Source of the DNA: a virus
Lineage: Duplodnaviria > Heunggongvirae > Uroviricota > Caudoviricetes
Direction: 5' to 3' (one strand)
Length of the DNA: 64,000 nucleotides
Virus record (IMG/VR): IMGVR_UViG_3300028561_000525
Below the pieces are notes generated by a model. It did no database searches, had not been told where the DNA came from, and worked only from the letters and a program-made list of their open reading frames with translations. Positions within the stretch are counted from its first letter, which is position 1, and each line of letters starts with the position of its first letter. The position numbers and the translations under genes are program-made. Below are positions 5,665 through 52,165 of this stretch, in pieces.

Positions 5665-6198
5665 TCATTCTATTTTGAATAGAAAATCTGGAATGTAATT
5701 CATATCCTTCCTTAAATCGGGTACATCAATTTTTCTTCCGAAATGTAAATCCTCCCCCCTCATATTGTTTGTGAGCATTGTATTGTATTCATCTGCCGCG
5801 GCTTTTATCTCATCACAAGTGTGTTCCGGTAACAGGATGGTTATATTTCCACTTGGGCTTCTAGCAGTTGTACATATGGAGATGGTTCTGGTAAATTCGT
5901 GCCAATGGGTTCCCCCATCGTGGAACTGTAAAATAATGTTATTTGATGACTGCCAGGCATCAAATCTCGTTTTTTTGTCTTGTGTATAAGCTGTCAATAA
6001 ATACTGGTCTTGTGTGACATTCACATATAAATTGAAACTAACTTCATCCCTGTTTATTTCTATTTCCCCGTGTCTCATAGGTTCCGGTAGAAGCAGTCTT
6101 ACATTTCCGCTTACTTCCTCAAACATATGTCTATCAAACATAAATTGTGCCGTTGTTTTATATTTGTCTCTTGTTTTATGTATTTCACATACTACCAT
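5665..6198 (-). CDS. hypothetical protein with the C-terminal DFLFKIE tail (LFEI-tail family member)
   Basis: 177 aa ORF with a 14-nt overlap with the dCMP deaminase gene. The C-terminus is ...NYIPDFLFKIE. Confidence 0.5.
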   Translation of the reverse strand: MVVCEIHKTRDKYKTTAQFMFDRHMFEEVSGNVRLLLPEPMRHGEIEINRDEVSFNLYVNVTQDQYLLTAYTQDKKTRFDAWQSSNNIILQFHDGGTHWHEFTRTISICTTARSPSGNITILLPEHTCDEIKAAADEYNTMLTNNMRGEDLHFGRKIDVPDLRKDMNYIPDFLFKIE

Positions 6199-7275: not shown

Positions 7276-7494
7276 ATGTTCATAGAATATAAAAACAGTA
7301 TTGTGAATTTATATCAGGTCTGTGAAATGAAAAAGATTGATACAGCCCGTGATAATTACTTTACAATTGTCTTTTATATCCCCAACGACAAGATTTATTG
7401 GTCGTTCAAAACGATGGAAGATCGTGACAAAATGTGGGAAAGAATAAGATTTGCCATAACCGCGTATTTACTTGTAAGAGAAGATGTGATATAA
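7276..7494 (+). CDS. hypothetical protein (72 aa)
   Basis: RBS AAGGAGAAATAAG, 1 nt after the previous stop. Confidence 0.4.
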   Translation: MFIEYKNSIVNLYQVCEMKKIDTARDNYFTIVFYIPNDKIYWSFKTMEDRDKMWERIRFAITAYLLVREDVI

Positions 7495-33281: not shown

Positions 33282-33582
33282 TATGTATTCGATTATTGTT
33301 CCTCTTCCTCAAAACTACAATGAAATGTATAACGCACTATGGGGTTGGGTTCCCGATGCCATAGTGCTCTTCATTGTATCATTTATCTTCTATAAGATAA
33401 CAACTTTCATTATAAGGAACAGCTATGATAGATTTCGATGATCCCTGTATCTGGTGTCAAGAATTGGATTGTGATAACTGCCCGTATTATCGTCAGTTGA
33501 CAGAACAGGAAAAAATACAAAACGGCGAGAGTGATCCCGTGATCTTTACGGAAGATTTGTCGAGAAGTGAGGCGGTGAAGTA

Positions 33583-47502: not shown

Positions 47503-48669
47503 ATGGTAAAAAGAGTTCTATTAAGTTTAATTTTTGTATTGGCGTTGTCAACGATGGCATTTGCTGATAGTGGTGTTTATGATAATACCACTTGGGGCTC
47601 GCCCGGCGCCGTGTATTCCGATAACAATCACGGTACAATCAATACGGGTGTGATGGGGCCTACGGTTGGTGGTAATGTTACTGGTGGTAGTGCCACAGCA
47701 ACGGCAACAAACACCAATACCAATACTGCTACTGGTGGTGCTGGTGGAGCCGGTGGAAATGTTACTGTTGGTGGTGGTATGTTCAGTAAGACACTATCAC
47801 CGGAAGCAAGTGTTTCCAATTCGGGTAATTCACTCAATTCCAATAAACAGGAAATGAATGGTAACCTCAATGGTAACCTCAATGGTAACTTGAACAATTC
47901 CGGTAATTCCTATAATAGGAATTCCAATCGGAACACCAATGTGAATAACATTGATGTGGATCAGAAACAGCAACAGGGTCAGGCTCAAGGTCAGCAACAG
48001 GGTCAGGCTCAGGAGCTTTCTGGAAATCAATCCGTGGCTAACGTGTCCATTACACAGAATGGTGCCGAGATTCCCCGTAACTTCGCTATTCCGGGCACCG
48101 TGTATTATCCCGGTATGCCTTCAGAGTTCTTGAATGATACTCAGTTCGCAAACGCTCAGCCTGTGAAGTTTATCCTTCAGTTCGGCTGTGTTTACAACAA
48201 GGTTCATCTTGAGAATATGAAGGGTGACGGTTGGGTAAAGACGCTTCAGCTTACCAATCTTTATGGTAATAAGGTTTCTTTCCCTGAAGATACCGCCACA
48301 ATTACATTCCTTACGGAAATTCCGAAGGATCTCAAGTTGAAGAAAATCGGTTCGGTTGTGTCCAAGGCGAGAACTGGTGACACCACTACAGAGCAGGTTC
48401 TTGGTGATATGGGTCTTGAAGCCCTTACAATCAAGGGTGCTAAGTATGTGTTGGTTTCCGGTGAAGGTATTCAGAAGTATACAAAGACTTCTGGATGGGG
48501 TGTTGCTCTTGGATATACACACGCTGGTATTTCCGATAACGGTCAATGGGCCGGAACGGGTACAGCTGGTGTTGGTTATTCATCCGGTAATGCCGGCCGT
48601 CAGGCCAATCCGTTTATTCACGGTGTCGTTCTTACGGACGAGGCAACATTCAACGAGTTGATGAAGTAA
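47503..48669 (+). CDS. secreted low-complexity repeat protein (388 aa), surface or structural candidate
   Basis: Signal peptide MVKRVLLSLIFVLALSTMAFA. Tandem GNLNGNLNGNLN and QQQGQAQGQQQGQAQ repeats. Confidence 0.55.
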   Translation: MVKRVLLSLIFVLALSTMAFADSGVYDNTTWGSPGAVYSDNNHGTINTGVMGPTVGGNVTGGSATATATNTNTNTATGGAGGAGGNVTVGGGMFSKTLSPEASVSNSGNSLNSNKQEMNGNLNGNLNGNLNNSGNSYNRNSNRNTNVNNIDVDQKQQQGQAQGQQQGQAQELSGNQSVANVSITQNGAEIPRNFAIPGTVYYPGMPSEFLNDTQFANAQPVKFILQFGCVYNKVHLENMKGDGWVKTLQLTNLYGNKVSFPEDTATITFLTEIPKDLKLKKIGSVVSKARTGDTTTEQVLGDMGLEALTIKGAKYVLVSGEGIQKYTKTSGWGVALGYTHAGISDNGQWAGTGTAGVGYSSGNAGRQANPFIHGVVLTDEATFNELMK

Positions 48670-49059: not shown

Positions 49060-49098
49060 TTAATCCATAAATCCAAGTGGTGATGTGATTCTTTTGAA

Positions 49099-49129
49099 AG
49101 CCGTGGTGAGAACATCGCCACGGCTTTTT
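49099..49129 (+). terminator. rho-independent terminator
   Basis: Stem GCCGTGG/CCACGGC followed by TTTTT. Confidence 0.5.
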
Positions 49130-49130
49130 A

Positions 49131-49159
49131 TTGACATTCTCCTATAAATATGGTATAAT
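49131..49159 (+). promoter_or_regulatory. sigma70 promoter TTGACA-17-TATAAT (TGG extension)
   Basis: TTGACA 49131-36, TATAAT 49154-59. Confidence 0.55.
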
Positions 49160-49181
49160 ATACAAGATGGGGGAATATTCG

Positions 49182-49379
49182 ATGATTGAGACTTATTGGA
49201 ACCTGATAAAAGAGAAAATAATGGCTCTGGACACCAAGGCCAAGGTTCTTATCGCTCTGGTCGTTCTTCTATTGATCAGTATGATATGGACTTCGATGAA
49301 GGTCTTTTTAGCTCTTCTATTTTTTGCCCTTGTGGGATATGGAGCTTATTGGCTTTATGAAAGAGCCAGAAATGAATAA
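49182..49379 (+). CDS. small membrane protein (65 aa)
   Basis: RBS GGGGGAA. The start is downstream of the promoter. Track ORF 49131-49379 would begin inside the -35. Confidence 0.4.
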   Translation: MIETYWNLIKEKIMALDTKAKVLIALVVLLLISMIWTSMKVFLALLFFALVGYGAYWLYERARNE

Positions 49380-49545
49380 GCGGGGAAAAGAAAAAAGAGG
49401 GGCCTCAATACCAGACAATGTTTTGGATGAAATAGCAAATTTGTTTGATGGGATAGGATGTTCAATAGATTACAGAAAAGATAATCCTGAGGCTACGCTG
49501 GAAACAGAGGAACTTCGGCCTCCACCGCTCGAATGTAGGAGATGA
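49372..49545 (+). CDS. hypothetical protein (57 aa)
   Basis: ATGA overlap. Confidence 0.35.
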   Translation: MNKRGKEKRGASIPDNVLDEIANLFDGIGCSIDYRKDNPEATLETEELRPPPLECRR

Positions 49546-50114
49546 AAATCGCTCGGACTACAGAGGGAGCAACCCAAACAGACCGGAGTAGGTGAGCGGT
49601 ATGATGATGGTCGGGTAGGGGCTAAGACAAATGTAGCCATAAAACAGAAGCCGGGGTACGGGGATTATCAATTACAACTGGAAACGGAGTAAGGGCTCGA
49701 CGGATACAGCTATCAGCCAGATGGTGAACTTAGCGCCCGATCAAAGCGGACAATATCAGATATCTTCTGAGGCGCATCAATACCTATTACTGGTGGAAAG
49801 CGAGAGGAGACAGCAATAGAGCCACATCTGAGGCTTCTCCCGAGCGCGCCGGTCAAGGCCGGACATTCCATACTGATGTGGAAGGGTATGGATAGAACCC
49901 GATAGAAGTCAAAATGCCGTCTTTACGTTTCCAGTTCTGAATACAATGGCGGGGGCGCAAGGTCGCAACTACCGCTCATAACGGTGGACAGCAGGGAGCG
50001 TTACCCTGACCCGCTACCAAATAAAAATGTGGCGGTAGGTTCTTGAGTGAGGAATGGTAGGTTGGACGCGACTTTTCTGTTTCTTTTACTGACGCATAAT
50101 CAGGTATAAATCAT
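49546..50114 (+). ncRNA. candidate large structured noncoding RNA; strand and class undetermined
   Basis: About 570 bp with no ORF of 60 aa or more on any strand, in an otherwise coding-saturated genome. It is visibly more GC-rich than the flanks. It contains complementary segments such as CTACCGC...GCGGTAG. It is transcribed from the 49131 promoter, and the tRNA cluster lies about 0.9 kb downstream. Confidence 0.25.
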
Positions 50115-50456
50115 ATGGAACCGATAATCCTGAACCGCCCCCGAATAGAAAATATGGCAGTTATATTTACGGTAATAGTCGCGAAGGAAAATGAGGAAGG
50201 GTTGTTGACCGTTCCCTTGGGATGGTTCTCCACATTTCCTGATGCCTCAAGTGGAATAGTGAATTTCGTAAAACACATTTTTGATGAGGACTTGGAAATG
50301 TGGCCGTATTTCATTATCGAGATGGTTCCAGAGGGGATAAATACCCCTGTATCTGAAGCCAGATGGTATAAATGGTATCCGGAAGAGTTTTCCTATGTTC
50401 CGATAAAGAAACCGGAAAAATATAACGACATTAAAAATTTCTCATTTATGAAATGA
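50115..50456 (+). CDS. hypothetical protein (113 aa)
   Basis: ORF right after the noncoding tract. Confidence 0.45.
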   Translation: MEPIILNRPRIENMAVIFTVIVAKENEEGLLTVPLGWFSTFPDASSGIVNFVKHIFDEDLEMWPYFIIEMVPEGINTPVSEARWYKWYPEEFSYVPIKKPEKYNDIKNFSFMK

Positions 50457-50486
50457 GAGAAATCCAATATTGGAGGGTCAAATTGT

Positions 50487-50972
50487 ATGAGGAATTTCCT
50501 TATCATTGTGATGTGCCTGACACTTGTGGCGTGTTATGCACCCAAAGTAACAAAGGTTCCTGTAGGCCCCTGTCCGGCCTGTAAAGCCGAGCCGGTGCCG
50601 GTGGTCAAAGTTACTCCACCGCCACCCCCACCACCGCCGCCACCCGTGGTGAAGAAGAAGATTGATGTTCTTCCTTTCTATTTTGCCTTTGACAAGGCAA
50701 CATTGGAGAACCAGCAGGAAGCAATCGGTAGAGCCATCGAATACCTGAAAGATGACCCGGCAAAAACCGTGGAGCTTCAGGGTAATTGTGACAATCGGGG
50801 TTCAGAGGCTTACAATATGAAGCTTGGTCAGCGGAGAGCGAATACCGTAAAAGATATCCTTGTGAAGAAGGGTATTGACAGCAAGAGGCTTACAACGAAA
50901 TCATTCGGTGAGTCGAAAGCTACTGGTAATCACGCCAAAGACCGAAGAGTTGACATTGTAGTTATCAAGTAA
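50487..50972 (+). CDS. OmpA/Pal-family peptidoglycan-associated lipoprotein
   Basis: Lipobox LTLVAC. A P11 linker. The OmpA C-terminal domain FAFDKATL...LQGNCDNRGSEAYNMKLGQRRANTVKDIL. Confidence 0.75.
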   Translation: MRNFLIIVMCLTLVACYAPKVTKVPVGPCPACKAEPVPVVKVTPPPPPPPPPPVVKKKIDVLPFYFAFDKATLENQQEAIGRAIEYLKDDPAKTVELQGNCDNRGSEAYNMKLGQRRANTVKDILVKKGIDSKRLTTKSFGESKATGNHAKDRRVDIVVIK

Positions 50973-51030: not shown

Positions 51031-51106
51031 ACCCCCATAGCCTAATGGATCAGGCAACTGCCTTCTAAGCAGTCTTATAGAGGTTCGAATCCTCTTGGGG
51101 GTGCCA
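51031..51106 (+). tRNA. tRNA-Arg (anticodon TCT)
   Basis: Manual fold. Acceptor ACCCCCA/TGGGGGT. D-stem GCCT/AGGC. Anticodon stem ACTGC/GCAGT with loop CTTCTAA. T-arm AGAGG-TTCGAAT-CCTCT. Encoded CCA. 76 nt. Confidence 0.85.
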
Positions 51107-51114
51107 GAAAATAT

Positions 51115-51190
51115 GCCCCTGTAGCCTAATGGATGAGGCAAGAGTTTCCTAAACTCTCTTATGCGGGTTCGAATCCTGTCAGGGGCTCCA
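51115..51190 (+). tRNA. tRNA-Arg (anticodon CCT)
   Basis: Acceptor GCCCCTG/CAGGGGC. Anticodon stem AGAGT/ACTCT with loop TTCCTAA. GGTTCGAATCC T-loop. Encoded CCA. Confidence 0.8.
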
Positions 51191-52085: not shown

Positions 52086-52165
52086 GCCTCCGTAGCTCAA
52101 CTGGATAGAGCACTTGGCCACGAACCAAGGATAATGTTGGGGTTCGAATCCTCACGGGGGCACCA
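52086..52165 (+). tRNA. tRNA-Arg (anticodon ACG)
   Basis: Acceptor GCCTCCG/CGGGGGC. D-arm GCTC...GAGC. Anticodon stem CTTGG/CCAAG with loop CCACGAA. GGTTCGAATCC. Encoded CCA. An 8-nt variable region, so the exact fold needs tRNAscan-SE. Confidence 0.7.

Follow-up and report, generated by a model that had tools for sequence, protein, structure and literature searches.

Putative catalytic-domain RNase P RNAs of large phages and the composite non-coding locus of one of them

A coding-free tract and its gene neighbourhood

The subject of this study is a tract of about 570 nucleotides (nt) in a 64,000-nt stretch of DNA from a virus (Caudoviricetes; IMG/VR record IMGVR_UViG_3300028561_000525), the whole of which is called the window here. 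The tract lies behind a sigma-70 promoter and a small open reading frame (ORF) and is followed by a short protein gene and three tRNA-Arg genes (Table 1). It almost certainly holds a homolog of RNase P RNA reduced to the catalytic domain, behind which a 273-nt insert, a tRNA-like element and a spacer are arranged. An original prediction, made from the letters alone, had regarded the whole tract as a candidate for one large structured RNA.

No ORF of 60 amino acids (aa) or more occurs between 49546 and 50114 on either strand, and the longest part of the window that is not covered by such ORFs is found here (49546-50110, 565 nt); the next-longest runs measure 301 nt and, in the region of the tRNA-Arg pair, 228 nt. 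The 301-nt run (33282-33582) gave no Rfam match at the gathering threshold, and the only matches obtained with this setting in the whole window are the three tRNAs. Given that no single stop-codon reassignment opens a frame across the tract, a recoded gene was rejected. The GC content amounts to 0.50-0.51 over 49450-50050 as against 0.38-0.46 in the flanks. In these respects, as well as with regard to the promoter and the three nearby tRNA genes, the original prediction described the tract correctly. Its extent has to be corrected at both ends: The RNA locus begins at 49480, inside the end of the small ORF, rather than at 49546, and the right boundary is probably 50153 rather than 50114, since in relatives it is the ATG matching 50154 that serves as the start of the downstream gene.

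The promoter drives the operon that contains the RNA locus, and its region is kept in relatives (window 49077-49176 aligns to positions 550-653 of the sister lineage L019). Substitutions in the small ORF follow a synonymous pattern in three lineages as far as DYRKD. Beyond this motif, a 10-nt indel within helix P3 of the putative RNase P RNA shifts the frame; the last 66 nt of the ORF overlap helices P1, P2 and P3 of this RNA, and protein conservation is absent there. A 388-aa secreted protein encoded upstream of the locus (47503-48669) is characterized by N/Q/G/T-rich low-complexity runs (NGNLNGNLNGNL, QQQGQAQGQQQGQAQ) and has no Pfam match.

Relatives of the locus were found via two homolog clusters of the downstream protein, one metagenome pattern scan and OmpA-based look-ups. 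They represent four lineages, the pieces of which were compared by BLAST and MAFFT (Table 1). Samples in which these phages occur stem from anaerobic digesters and activated sludge (e.g. JGI 3300009655 and 3300009664; ENA ERZ27257479). A search of IMG/VR for relatives by the downstream 113-aa protein or the methylase found none. The members of the window lineage, L013, L032 and L051, show zero differences anywhere in 49371-50456. In L019, the RNase P-like RNA is followed by CAATT and then directly by the tRNA-like element. The OmpA-based retrieval (P0006, P0007, P0009, P0010) led either to lineages in which the entire RNA locus is missing or to a recombinant with an unchanged tract. Judged by the comparison of these sequences, the tract is a composite non-coding RNA locus that consists of four independent pieces inside an operon. 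The folding energy of the whole tract relative to shuffled sequence, a check proposed with the original prediction, resulted in a z-score of only -0.93 on the plus strand and 0.02 on the minus strand. These unremarkable values are explained by the mosaic nature of the tract and gave the first hint that it is more than one unit.

Several further observations were made in the relatives. L051 equals the window over 49371-50456 and then falls to ~75% identity in the OmpA-like gene (window 50457-50699), which places a sharp recombination breakpoint right after the 100-aa gene. The slot of the RNase P RNA in L033, a sequence from activated sludge, is occupied by a hairpin-closed RNA of ~150 nt (reverse strand, ~425-280; AGUGGGGUG...CACCCCACU) that contains a T-arm-like GGCGGUUCAAAUCCGUC and is recognised neither by ARAGORN nor by Rfam (E<=1). 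Upstream of the small ORF, L014 has a tRNA-Met-like sequence (CAU; ~5761-5837) that is not called by ARAGORN and shows an A-A mismatch in the anticodon stem by eye; a called tRNA-Met is located at the same place in L019, and none in the window. A further relative, L015 (GCA_035452365.1, contig DAOTQL010000010.1), was deposited in a metagenome-assembled genome labelled 'Bacteroidales bacterium'. A Bacteroidales host is doubtful because of the consensus sigma-70 promoters in the window (TTGACA-17-TATAAT) and in L033 (TTTACA-17-TATACT), and the placement of L015 is probably a binning artefact.

Table 1. Features of the locus and its neighbourhood in window coordinates, with the distribution of the four pieces among the lineages
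Feature	Position	Strand	Description	Distribution
Sigma-70 consensus promoter	49131..49159	+	TTGACA-17-TATAAT, extended TG; 12/12 matches	
Small ORF, 62 aa	49357..49545	+	conserved part ends ...ANLFDGIGCSIDYRKD	
Putative miniature RNase P RNA, 190 nt	49480..49669	+	catalytic domain only; Rfam RNaseP_arch, 51 bits, E 4.4e-13	present in window lineage (L013, L032, L051) and L019; absent in L014, L033
P1	49480-87/49662-69	+	8 bp	
P2	49491-96/49633-38	+	6 bp	
P3 hairpin	49498-49507	+	CUG-GAAA-CAG in window	
P4 pseudoknot	49512-19/49650-57	+	8 bp, ACUUCGGC/GCCGGGGU	
P5	49520-23/49566-69	+	4 bp	
P6 pseudoknot	49524-29/49595-49600	+	ACCGCU/AGCGGU; joins segment after P5 to P16 loop	
P7 stub hairpin	between P5 strands	+	~29 nt	
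J5/15 linker		+	CAA, 3 nt	
P15		+	3 bp (CCC/GGG), flanks L15	
L15 internal loop	49613-17 (GGGUA)	+	AAACA/GGGUA, between P15 and P16	
P16		+	5 bp	
Lineage-specific insertion, 273 nt	49674..49946	+	between RNase P RNA and tRNA-like element; predicted closed multi-helix domain	present in window lineage; absent in L019, L014, L033
5' arm of perfect 11-bp inverted repeat	49676..49686	+	AACTGGAAACG	
3' arm of perfect 11-bp inverted repeat	49926..49936	+	CGTTTCCAGTT	
tRNA-like element	49948..50019	+	6-7 bp acceptor stem, 4-bp D stem, 3-nt AAG D loop, discriminator A, encoded CCA	all four lineages; L019 100% over 72 nt, L014 ~87%, L033 ~84%
Lineage-specific spacer (insertion 2), ~120 nt	50028..50153	+	second GATAATCCTGA copy (50124); alternative upstream ATG (50115)	present in window lineage; absent in L019, L014, L033
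Downstream protein gene	50154..50456	+	100 aa in relatives; a start at 50115 would give 113 aa; anchor for finding relatives	
tRNA-Arg(UCU)	51031..51106	+	CCA encoded; candidate substrate	
tRNA-Arg(CCU)	51115..51190	+	CCA encoded; candidate substrate	
tRNA-Arg(ACG)	52086..52165	+	CCA encoded; candidate substrate	

The miniature RNase P RNA and its relatives in large phages

The archaeal RNase P model RF00373 was the sole Rfam match in E-value mode between 49100 and 50400. No match at E<=10 was obtained for GOLLD, ROOL, HEARO or group I/II introns, the families against which the original prediction was to be checked, and its own rejection of a group I/II intron is upheld. The alignment spans model positions 1-288, from which ~117 positions of the specificity domain (S-domain) are deleted. 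This domain, comprising P8-P14 with the conserved regions CR-II and CR-III, lacks ~117-140 model positions in every Rfam alignment made here, and a stub hairpin (P7) stands where it would be. The L019 RNA reached 48.3 bits with the same model, with which random genomes score at most ~14 bits (PMC3579882). All scores lie below the gathering thresholds (51.0 and 48.3 vs 84 for RF00373; 63.8 for L059, a family member described below, vs 100 for RF00010). The resemblance to RNase P that the original prediction had loosely noted for GGGUAGGGGCUA...ACAGAAGCCGGGGUA (49614-49658) turned out to be real homology; the segment is located near the 5' end of the tract and not, as had been stated, on its 3' side. 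RNase P had been dismissed there because the 5' core seemed to be absent. This core is present at 49480-49545, beginning 66 nt upstream of the assumed start of the tract.

The secondary structure of the window RNA was derived from the Rfam alignment and from direct reading (Table 1). It includes the long-range helix P4 formed by CR-I and CR-V, while P18 is absent. CR-I (GAGGAA), CR-IV (AGAnnAAUG, AGACAAAUG) and CR-V (AACAGAA) are present as invariant alignment columns and align to the Rfam consensus; after GAGGAA, CR-I deviates by CUUC rather than AGUC. The GGU of L15 is known as the binding site for the RCCA end of the tRNA (PMC11143913). When the window is compared with L019, 99.1% of the cells are paired; double compensatory changes occur four times (twice in P16, once in P5 and once in the stub), two more changes involve wobble pairs, and a single mismatch is located at the P6 edge. 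Slid controls contain 29-52% paired cells and no compensatory change. P3, which reads CUACCACC-UUCC-GGUGGUAG in L019, differs from the window by a clean hairpin indel. The mean column identity between the two RNAs is 91%, compared with ~77-80% in the flanking coding sequence; this higher conservation suggests that the RNA is under selection. Taken as a whole, the stretch 49480-49669 is almost certainly an RNase P RNA homolog, and as far as its helices and motifs tell, it derives from the bacterial/archaeal type A architecture minus the specificity domain and P18.

The 11-nt sequence GATAATCCTGA occurs as a direct repeat at 49480-49490 and 50124-50134 (14/16 over 16 nt). The first copy is the 5' strand of P1, and the second is located in the lineage-specific spacer, within the stretch that may extend the 113-aa ORF at its N-terminus. 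The 3' strand of P1 could pair with either copy.

A generic pattern composed of a canonical CR-I, 100-130 nt and CR-V matched one contig in IMG/VR, L059. Its RNA is located directly downstream of six tRNA-Leu genes and, apart from the deleted S-domain and P18, aligns end to end with RNaseP_bact_a (63.8 bits, E 2.6e-18). A second pattern, made from motifs common to the window and L059 (GCAACNCAAACAG...GGGTAG...AACAGAA), matched ten IMG/VR contigs of 5.8-527 kb. All ten loci were recovered with 23-131 bits by R1, a covariance model built solely from the window and L019, which gave no further match in the window and none in the lineages without the RNase P RNA. BLAST of one member against GenBank phages led to two unannotated huge-phage genomes, LR745206.1 (635 kb) and LR756511.1 (595 kb), confirmed by R1 with 53 and 79 bits, respectively. 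At the Rfam gathering threshold, the loci of 12 relatives produced 51 tRNA-type matches and no RNase P.

An alignment of 12 sequences to the model revealed 96.8% paired cells and both-sided changes at 34 of the 42 pairs. This level of covariation was reached by none of 500 shuffles, and slid controls were paired to 30-56%. Since fitting to the model favours the structure, two further checks compensate for this. A hand-built table of helix strands, which includes both pseudoknots, contains 401 cells with six non-standard ones, all at the ends of P6, and in P2, P4 and P5 a single position shows as many as four kinds of pair; the P2 row of L084 used a doubtful strand, and 395 cells are left without that row. 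RNAalifold, applied to a structure-blind MAFFT alignment, recovered P4, P7, the inner stub hairpin, P15 and P16, with 16 of 29 pairs compensated. With respect to single helices, P4 shows two to four pair types at seven of its eight positions over the 12 sequences and no mismatch, P6 covaries from C-G to U-A at two positions (seven sequences), and the middle pair of P15 is realised as C-G, A-U or G-C. The subgroup L082/L084/L085 is devoid of P6 and has a longer P5 instead. The motif CGGGUAG is invariant in the 12 tabulated sequences; the GenBank members differ from it with UGGUAG (L092) and CGGGUU (L091). A circular permutation of the L084 member was considered and withdrawn, as a normal P2 can be read directly (ACUAUC/GACGGU, one A-C mismatch). 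At least 14 divergent sequences, which stem from unrelated large phages, have the same deletion architecture, and the covariation within them points to a phage family of which the window RNA is very probably a member.

Three members carry extra segments of ~60-170 nt between the strands of P5, mostly in the P7 stub (L082, 3192-3528; L090, 10741-11041 on the minus strand; L083, 753-996 on the minus strand). The position of the lost S-domain is therefore an insertion hot spot; the extra domain of the window follows P1 instead.

Many of the RNAs are found next to tRNA genes. In L088, a tRNA-Ile starts 4 nt after the RNA, in L084 a tRNA-Thr starts 14 nt after it and a tRNA-Leu ends 56 nt before it, and in L086 a tRNA-Ile ends 2 nt before it; in L019, the tRNA-like element follows after 5 nt. 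In L059, L084, L088 and L089, a distance of 5-11 kb contains 8-13 tRNAs, almost all of them encoded on the same strand; arrays of 6-13 tRNAs occur in L059, L084 and L089. Given that both GenBank members have no tRNA within 2.5 kb, the link with tRNAs is frequent and not obligatory. Directly upstream of the RNase P RNA of L088 (~7440-7476), a T-arm-like GAGTTCGATTCTC with an acceptor-like end was noticed that is not called by ARAGORN, so that this RNA may be flanked by tRNA-like structures on both sides. A suppressor-type tRNA with a CUA anticodon in L089 (4924-4996; tRNA-Pyl according to ARAGORN) and a tRNA-Sec-like match of 48.5 bits in L084 (835-921) are hints of stop-codon recoding in some carriers.

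The tRNA-like element and the lineage-specific insertions

The tRNA-like element adopts a cloverleaf fold. Its four distinct sequences show covariation in the D stem (GCGC/CCAC/GAUC, each with a fitting partner strand) and in the anticodon stem. Its anticodon loop CUCAUAA (CAU) and its T arm CAGGG-AGCGUUA-CCCUG are invariant. The D loop (AAG) lacks the canonical G18 G19, and the T loop (AGCGUUA) deviates from UUCRANY. The element was not called by ARAGORN in bacterial mode, not even with thresholds of 70%, nor did it match the Rfam tRNA model at E<=10; with the option -mt, ARAGORN calls mtRNA-Met(cat) at 49945-50019. The 3' end of the element matches the canonical tRNA-Met upstream in the L019 lineage, and the element is therefore regarded as a diverged paralog of tRNA-Met. 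Since the flanking genes are only 77-81% identical between the lineages, it is far better conserved than its surroundings, and its sequence conservation indicates very strong purifying selection. It is probably still functional, either as a tRNA or as a signal for processing.

The boundaries of the 273-nt insert, which ends with ...AUACAA, are fixed unambiguously by the comparison with L019. The z-score of its minimum free energy is -3.2 on the plus strand and -1.46 on the minus strand. Rfam found nothing at E<=10 in 49665-50160, and homologs of the insert were found neither in the window and the fetched loci nor in IMG/VR, GTDB genomes, GenBank phages and plasmids. In line with this, nhmmer searches with the two insertions returned nothing from any fetched locus or from elsewhere in the window, and BLAST of the tract against GenBank phages and plasmids gave no match. 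A pattern anchored on the inverted repeats had seven matches in GTDB genomes and IMG/VR, all due to chance, as were the 12 matches of the exact 16-mer AACAGAAGCCGGGGTA in IMG/VR. A window-specific two-anchor pattern did not match any of the GTDB genomes, and a looser version applied to IMG/VR yielded 22 matches, all of them unrelated and within coding sequence. As to the second insertion, the spacer, its folding z-score of 0.05 indicates no excess structure.

A retron msr/msd, an omega RNA and a bridge RNA were rejected as candidates for the insert because no reverse transcriptase, TnpB or IS110 gene is adjacent. A 15-nt repeat (CTGGAAACAGAGGAA / CTGGAAACGGAGTAA) had suggested that the insert might be another, degenerate RNase P RNA or an S-domain that had been displaced; this was discarded as neither R1 nor Rfam finds anything there. 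The confinement of the insert to one lineage, its sharp boundaries and its perfect 11-bp terminal inverted repeats would be compatible with a selfish or mobile insertion, i.e. a MITE-like (miniature inverted-repeat transposable element) sequence, a degenerate intron or an intervening sequence, that stands outside the RNase P/tRNA system. For this 273-nt piece only, we consider such an origin possible and yet unlikely, since a second copy is absent from all the sequence sets listed above, a target-site duplication is missing, a group I intron would require a terminal G that is not there, no Rfam intron model matches, and folding is clearly better for the sense than for the antisense strand. A MITE and a group I/II intron in the proper sense were rejected on the same grounds.

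Possible role, alternatives and known systems

The best explanation overall is probably that of a phage RNase P catalytic-domain RNA which, as part of a composite locus, processes phage tRNAs. That the window RNA itself is a working tRNA 5' endonuclease during infection is a reading to which we incline slightly. The miniature RNA would be cut from the polycistronic transcript by tRNA-processing cleavages: A tRNA or tRNA-like element follows P1 at a distance of 4-14 nt in relatives, and an RNase P cut at this site would create the 3' end of the ribozyme itself. Its partner would probably be the host RnpA protein, and its task the removal of the 5' leaders of phage pre-tRNAs. Substrates would be recognised via the acceptor stem and the pairing of RCCA with L15 (GGU), not via the elbow of T loop and D loop. 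The window contains four candidate substrates, the tRNA-like element and the three tRNA-Arg genes, and in each of them CCA is encoded. It has been reported that catalytic domains (C-domains) without S-domain cleave pre-tRNA with or without protein (PMC11143913). The neighbourhood of an RNase P RNA without elbow-reading domain and a tRNA-like element without canonical elbow is suggestive, and elbow-independent recognition would suit this element.

Several observations weigh against this explanation. The bulged U of P4, equivalent to U69 of E. coli, is missing in the window and L019, where the 5' strand ACUUCGGC measures 8 nt rather than 9 and tandem U-G pairs are formed. In known enzymes, the bulged uridine of P4 positions a catalytic metal ion (PMC11143913), and the window branch may therefore be weakly active or inactive. 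The deletion of P18, a helix that is absent here, lowers the rate more than 3000-fold in E. coli (PMC11143913). Furthermore, the branch of the window comprises two distinct sequences only, the 5' third of the RNA overlaps the translated ORF 49357-49545, and in L014 and L033 the tRNA-like element persists although an RNase P RNA is absent. Because the 273-nt insert separates the RNA from the tRNA-like element, the processing path of the relatives is not directly applicable in the window lineage. Finally, an ORF with the RNR motif of a phage rnpA was found neither in the window nor in the fetched loci, a weak negative given that these cover only small genome parts.

The loss of the bulged U specifically in the window branch, the helices of which are still kept by compensatory changes, also raises the question of a non-catalytic mimic, in which the fold is kept and the chemistry lost. 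Such an RNA might serve as a decoy or scaffold that titrates host RnpA or binds pre-tRNAs or the tRNA-like element, so that tRNA maturation would be shifted in favour of the phage, or as a module for mRNA processing or stability, and the absence of P18 and the embedding in an mRNA with an overlapping ORF would fit this as well. We regard it as rather improbable, as CR-I, CR-IV, CR-V, J5/15 and the GGU of L15 are unchanged although a pure protein decoy would not need them, and as the canonical catalytic P4 with its bulged U is kept in the other 10 of the 12 tabulated members, e.g. in L086 (5319-5509) and L089 (1395-1588), and in both GenBank members. In addition, tandem G-U pairs can also bind metal ions.

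A more far-reaching proposal would combine the miniature RNase P RNA, the 273-nt insert that begins 4 nt later and the elbow-less tRNA-like element into one co-evolved system. In this two-domain ribozyme for a non-canonical substrate, the insert would replace the specificity domain or retarget the ribozyme, and the altered P4 would reflect a changed active site or substrate. We consider this speculative and of low probability. A decaying fragment of a host rnpB that was picked up by the phage and persists as a functionless pseudogene could account for the truncation relative to cellular RNase P RNAs, the scores below the Rfam gathering thresholds and the missing P4 bulge; it is very improbable in view of the shared deletion architecture of at least 14 divergent phage sequences with compensatory changes in every helix, the substitutions of the window branch, which avoid or compensate paired positions, and the slower evolution of the RNA in comparison with the neighbouring coding sequence. 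One ornate RNA of the GOLLD/ROOL/HEARO type spanning the whole tract, as originally predicted, is hardly conceivable: The lack of ORFs, the higher GC content, the vicinity of tRNAs and an insert that folds better than shuffled sequence would agree with it, and a structured non-coding RNA linked to tRNA biology and transcribed in sense from a strong promoter does stand, but ornate RNA families gave no Rfam match at E<=10, the whole-tract z-score is weak, and relatives split the tract into four pieces that occur independently, with L019 lacking insert and spacer, and L014 and L033 lacking the RNase P RNA.

The preferred explanation thus remains a phage RNase P catalytic-domain RNA, and it would have several implications. 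RNase P RNA is counted among the hallmarks of cellular life. The family would consist of natural bacterial-type RNase P RNAs of 190-220 nt without S-domain or P18 and, to our knowledge, smaller than any known bacterial RNase P RNA. If active, it would mean that large phages carry their own tRNA-maturing ribozyme besides their tRNA arrays, which would extend the known takeover of translation, and both the capability of a catalytic domain in vivo and the elbow-free choice of substrates would become directly testable. The branch of the window adds two twists, the loss of the catalytic bulged U and the appended structured domain of 273 nt. The family also points to an annotation gap: The Rfam gathering thresholds miss every member tested, two GenBank records carry no annotation at all, and a dedicated model would change the annotation of tRNA-rich phage genomes. 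A full-text literature search revealed, within the searchable literature, no report of a virus-encoded RNase P RNA, and no description or annotation of what appears to be a miniature RNase P RNA family in large phages was found. A comprehensive RNase P review from 2024 mentions phages only as a source of tRNA substrates (PMC11143913).

Among the known systems, type A RNase P RNA (RF00010, RF00373) shares with the window RNA the order and topology of P1-P7 and P15-P16, including the P4 and P6 pseudoknots, as well as CR-I GAGGAA, CR-IV AGAnnAAUG, CR-V ACAGAA, the 3-nt J5/15 CAA and the GGU of L15. While type A RNAs measure ~350-400 nt and possess an S-domain, the phage RNA comprises 190 nt and is devoid of P8-P14, CR-II/III and P18. 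The type T RNase P RNA of archaea likewise represents a natural loss of the greater part of the S-domain, combined with a type A-like catalytic domain, and is similar in size to the phage RNA. Its defining traits are a P2 of 3 bp, a 2-nt linker between P5 and P15, a shortened P15 and a truncated P10 (PMC3579882). In contrast, P2 of the phage RNA has 6 bp and the linker 3 nt, P5 has 4 bp, P6 is present, the GC content is ~50% instead of 61-78%, and the genetic context is that of a bacterial phage. As the phage RNA lacks the defining features of type T, its S-domain was most likely lost independently and by convergence.

Engineered C-domain RNAs such as Eco CP RPR (PMC5839562, PMC11143913) have the same domain content as the phage RNAs and cleave pre-tRNA both in the presence and in the absence of protein, the substrate being bound more weakly (PMC5839562, PMC11143913). 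They were made by deletion in the laboratory and retain P18 and the bulged U69, whereas the phage RNAs are natural, lack P18 and possess a conserved P7 stub with a GGAG/CGC internal loop. GOLLD and ROOL are likewise phage-associated, ORF-free and often located near tRNAs; they differ from the tract, which is a mosaic, in sequence and structure. In tRNA punctuation and in MALAT1-mascRNA, a tRNA or tRNA-like structure follows directly on the 3' side, and the RNase P cut would generate the 3' end of the upstream RNA. The arrangement in L019, L088 and L084 (4-14 nt) resembles this, with the difference from MALAT1-mascRNA that the upstream RNA would itself be an RNase P RNA; in the phages the arrangement is deduced from gene order, and in the window the 273-nt insert intervenes. 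The 'bizarre' tRNAs of metazoan mitochondria, finally, have in common with the tRNA-like element a D loop shrunken to 3 nt, a T loop without T54-Psi55-C56...A58 and the detection by ARAGORN in mitochondrial mode. Unlike these, the tRNA-like element is encoded by a phage, has a T loop of 7 nt, a T stem of 5 bp and an encoded CCA, and is a paralog of a canonical phage tRNA-Met in sister lineages.

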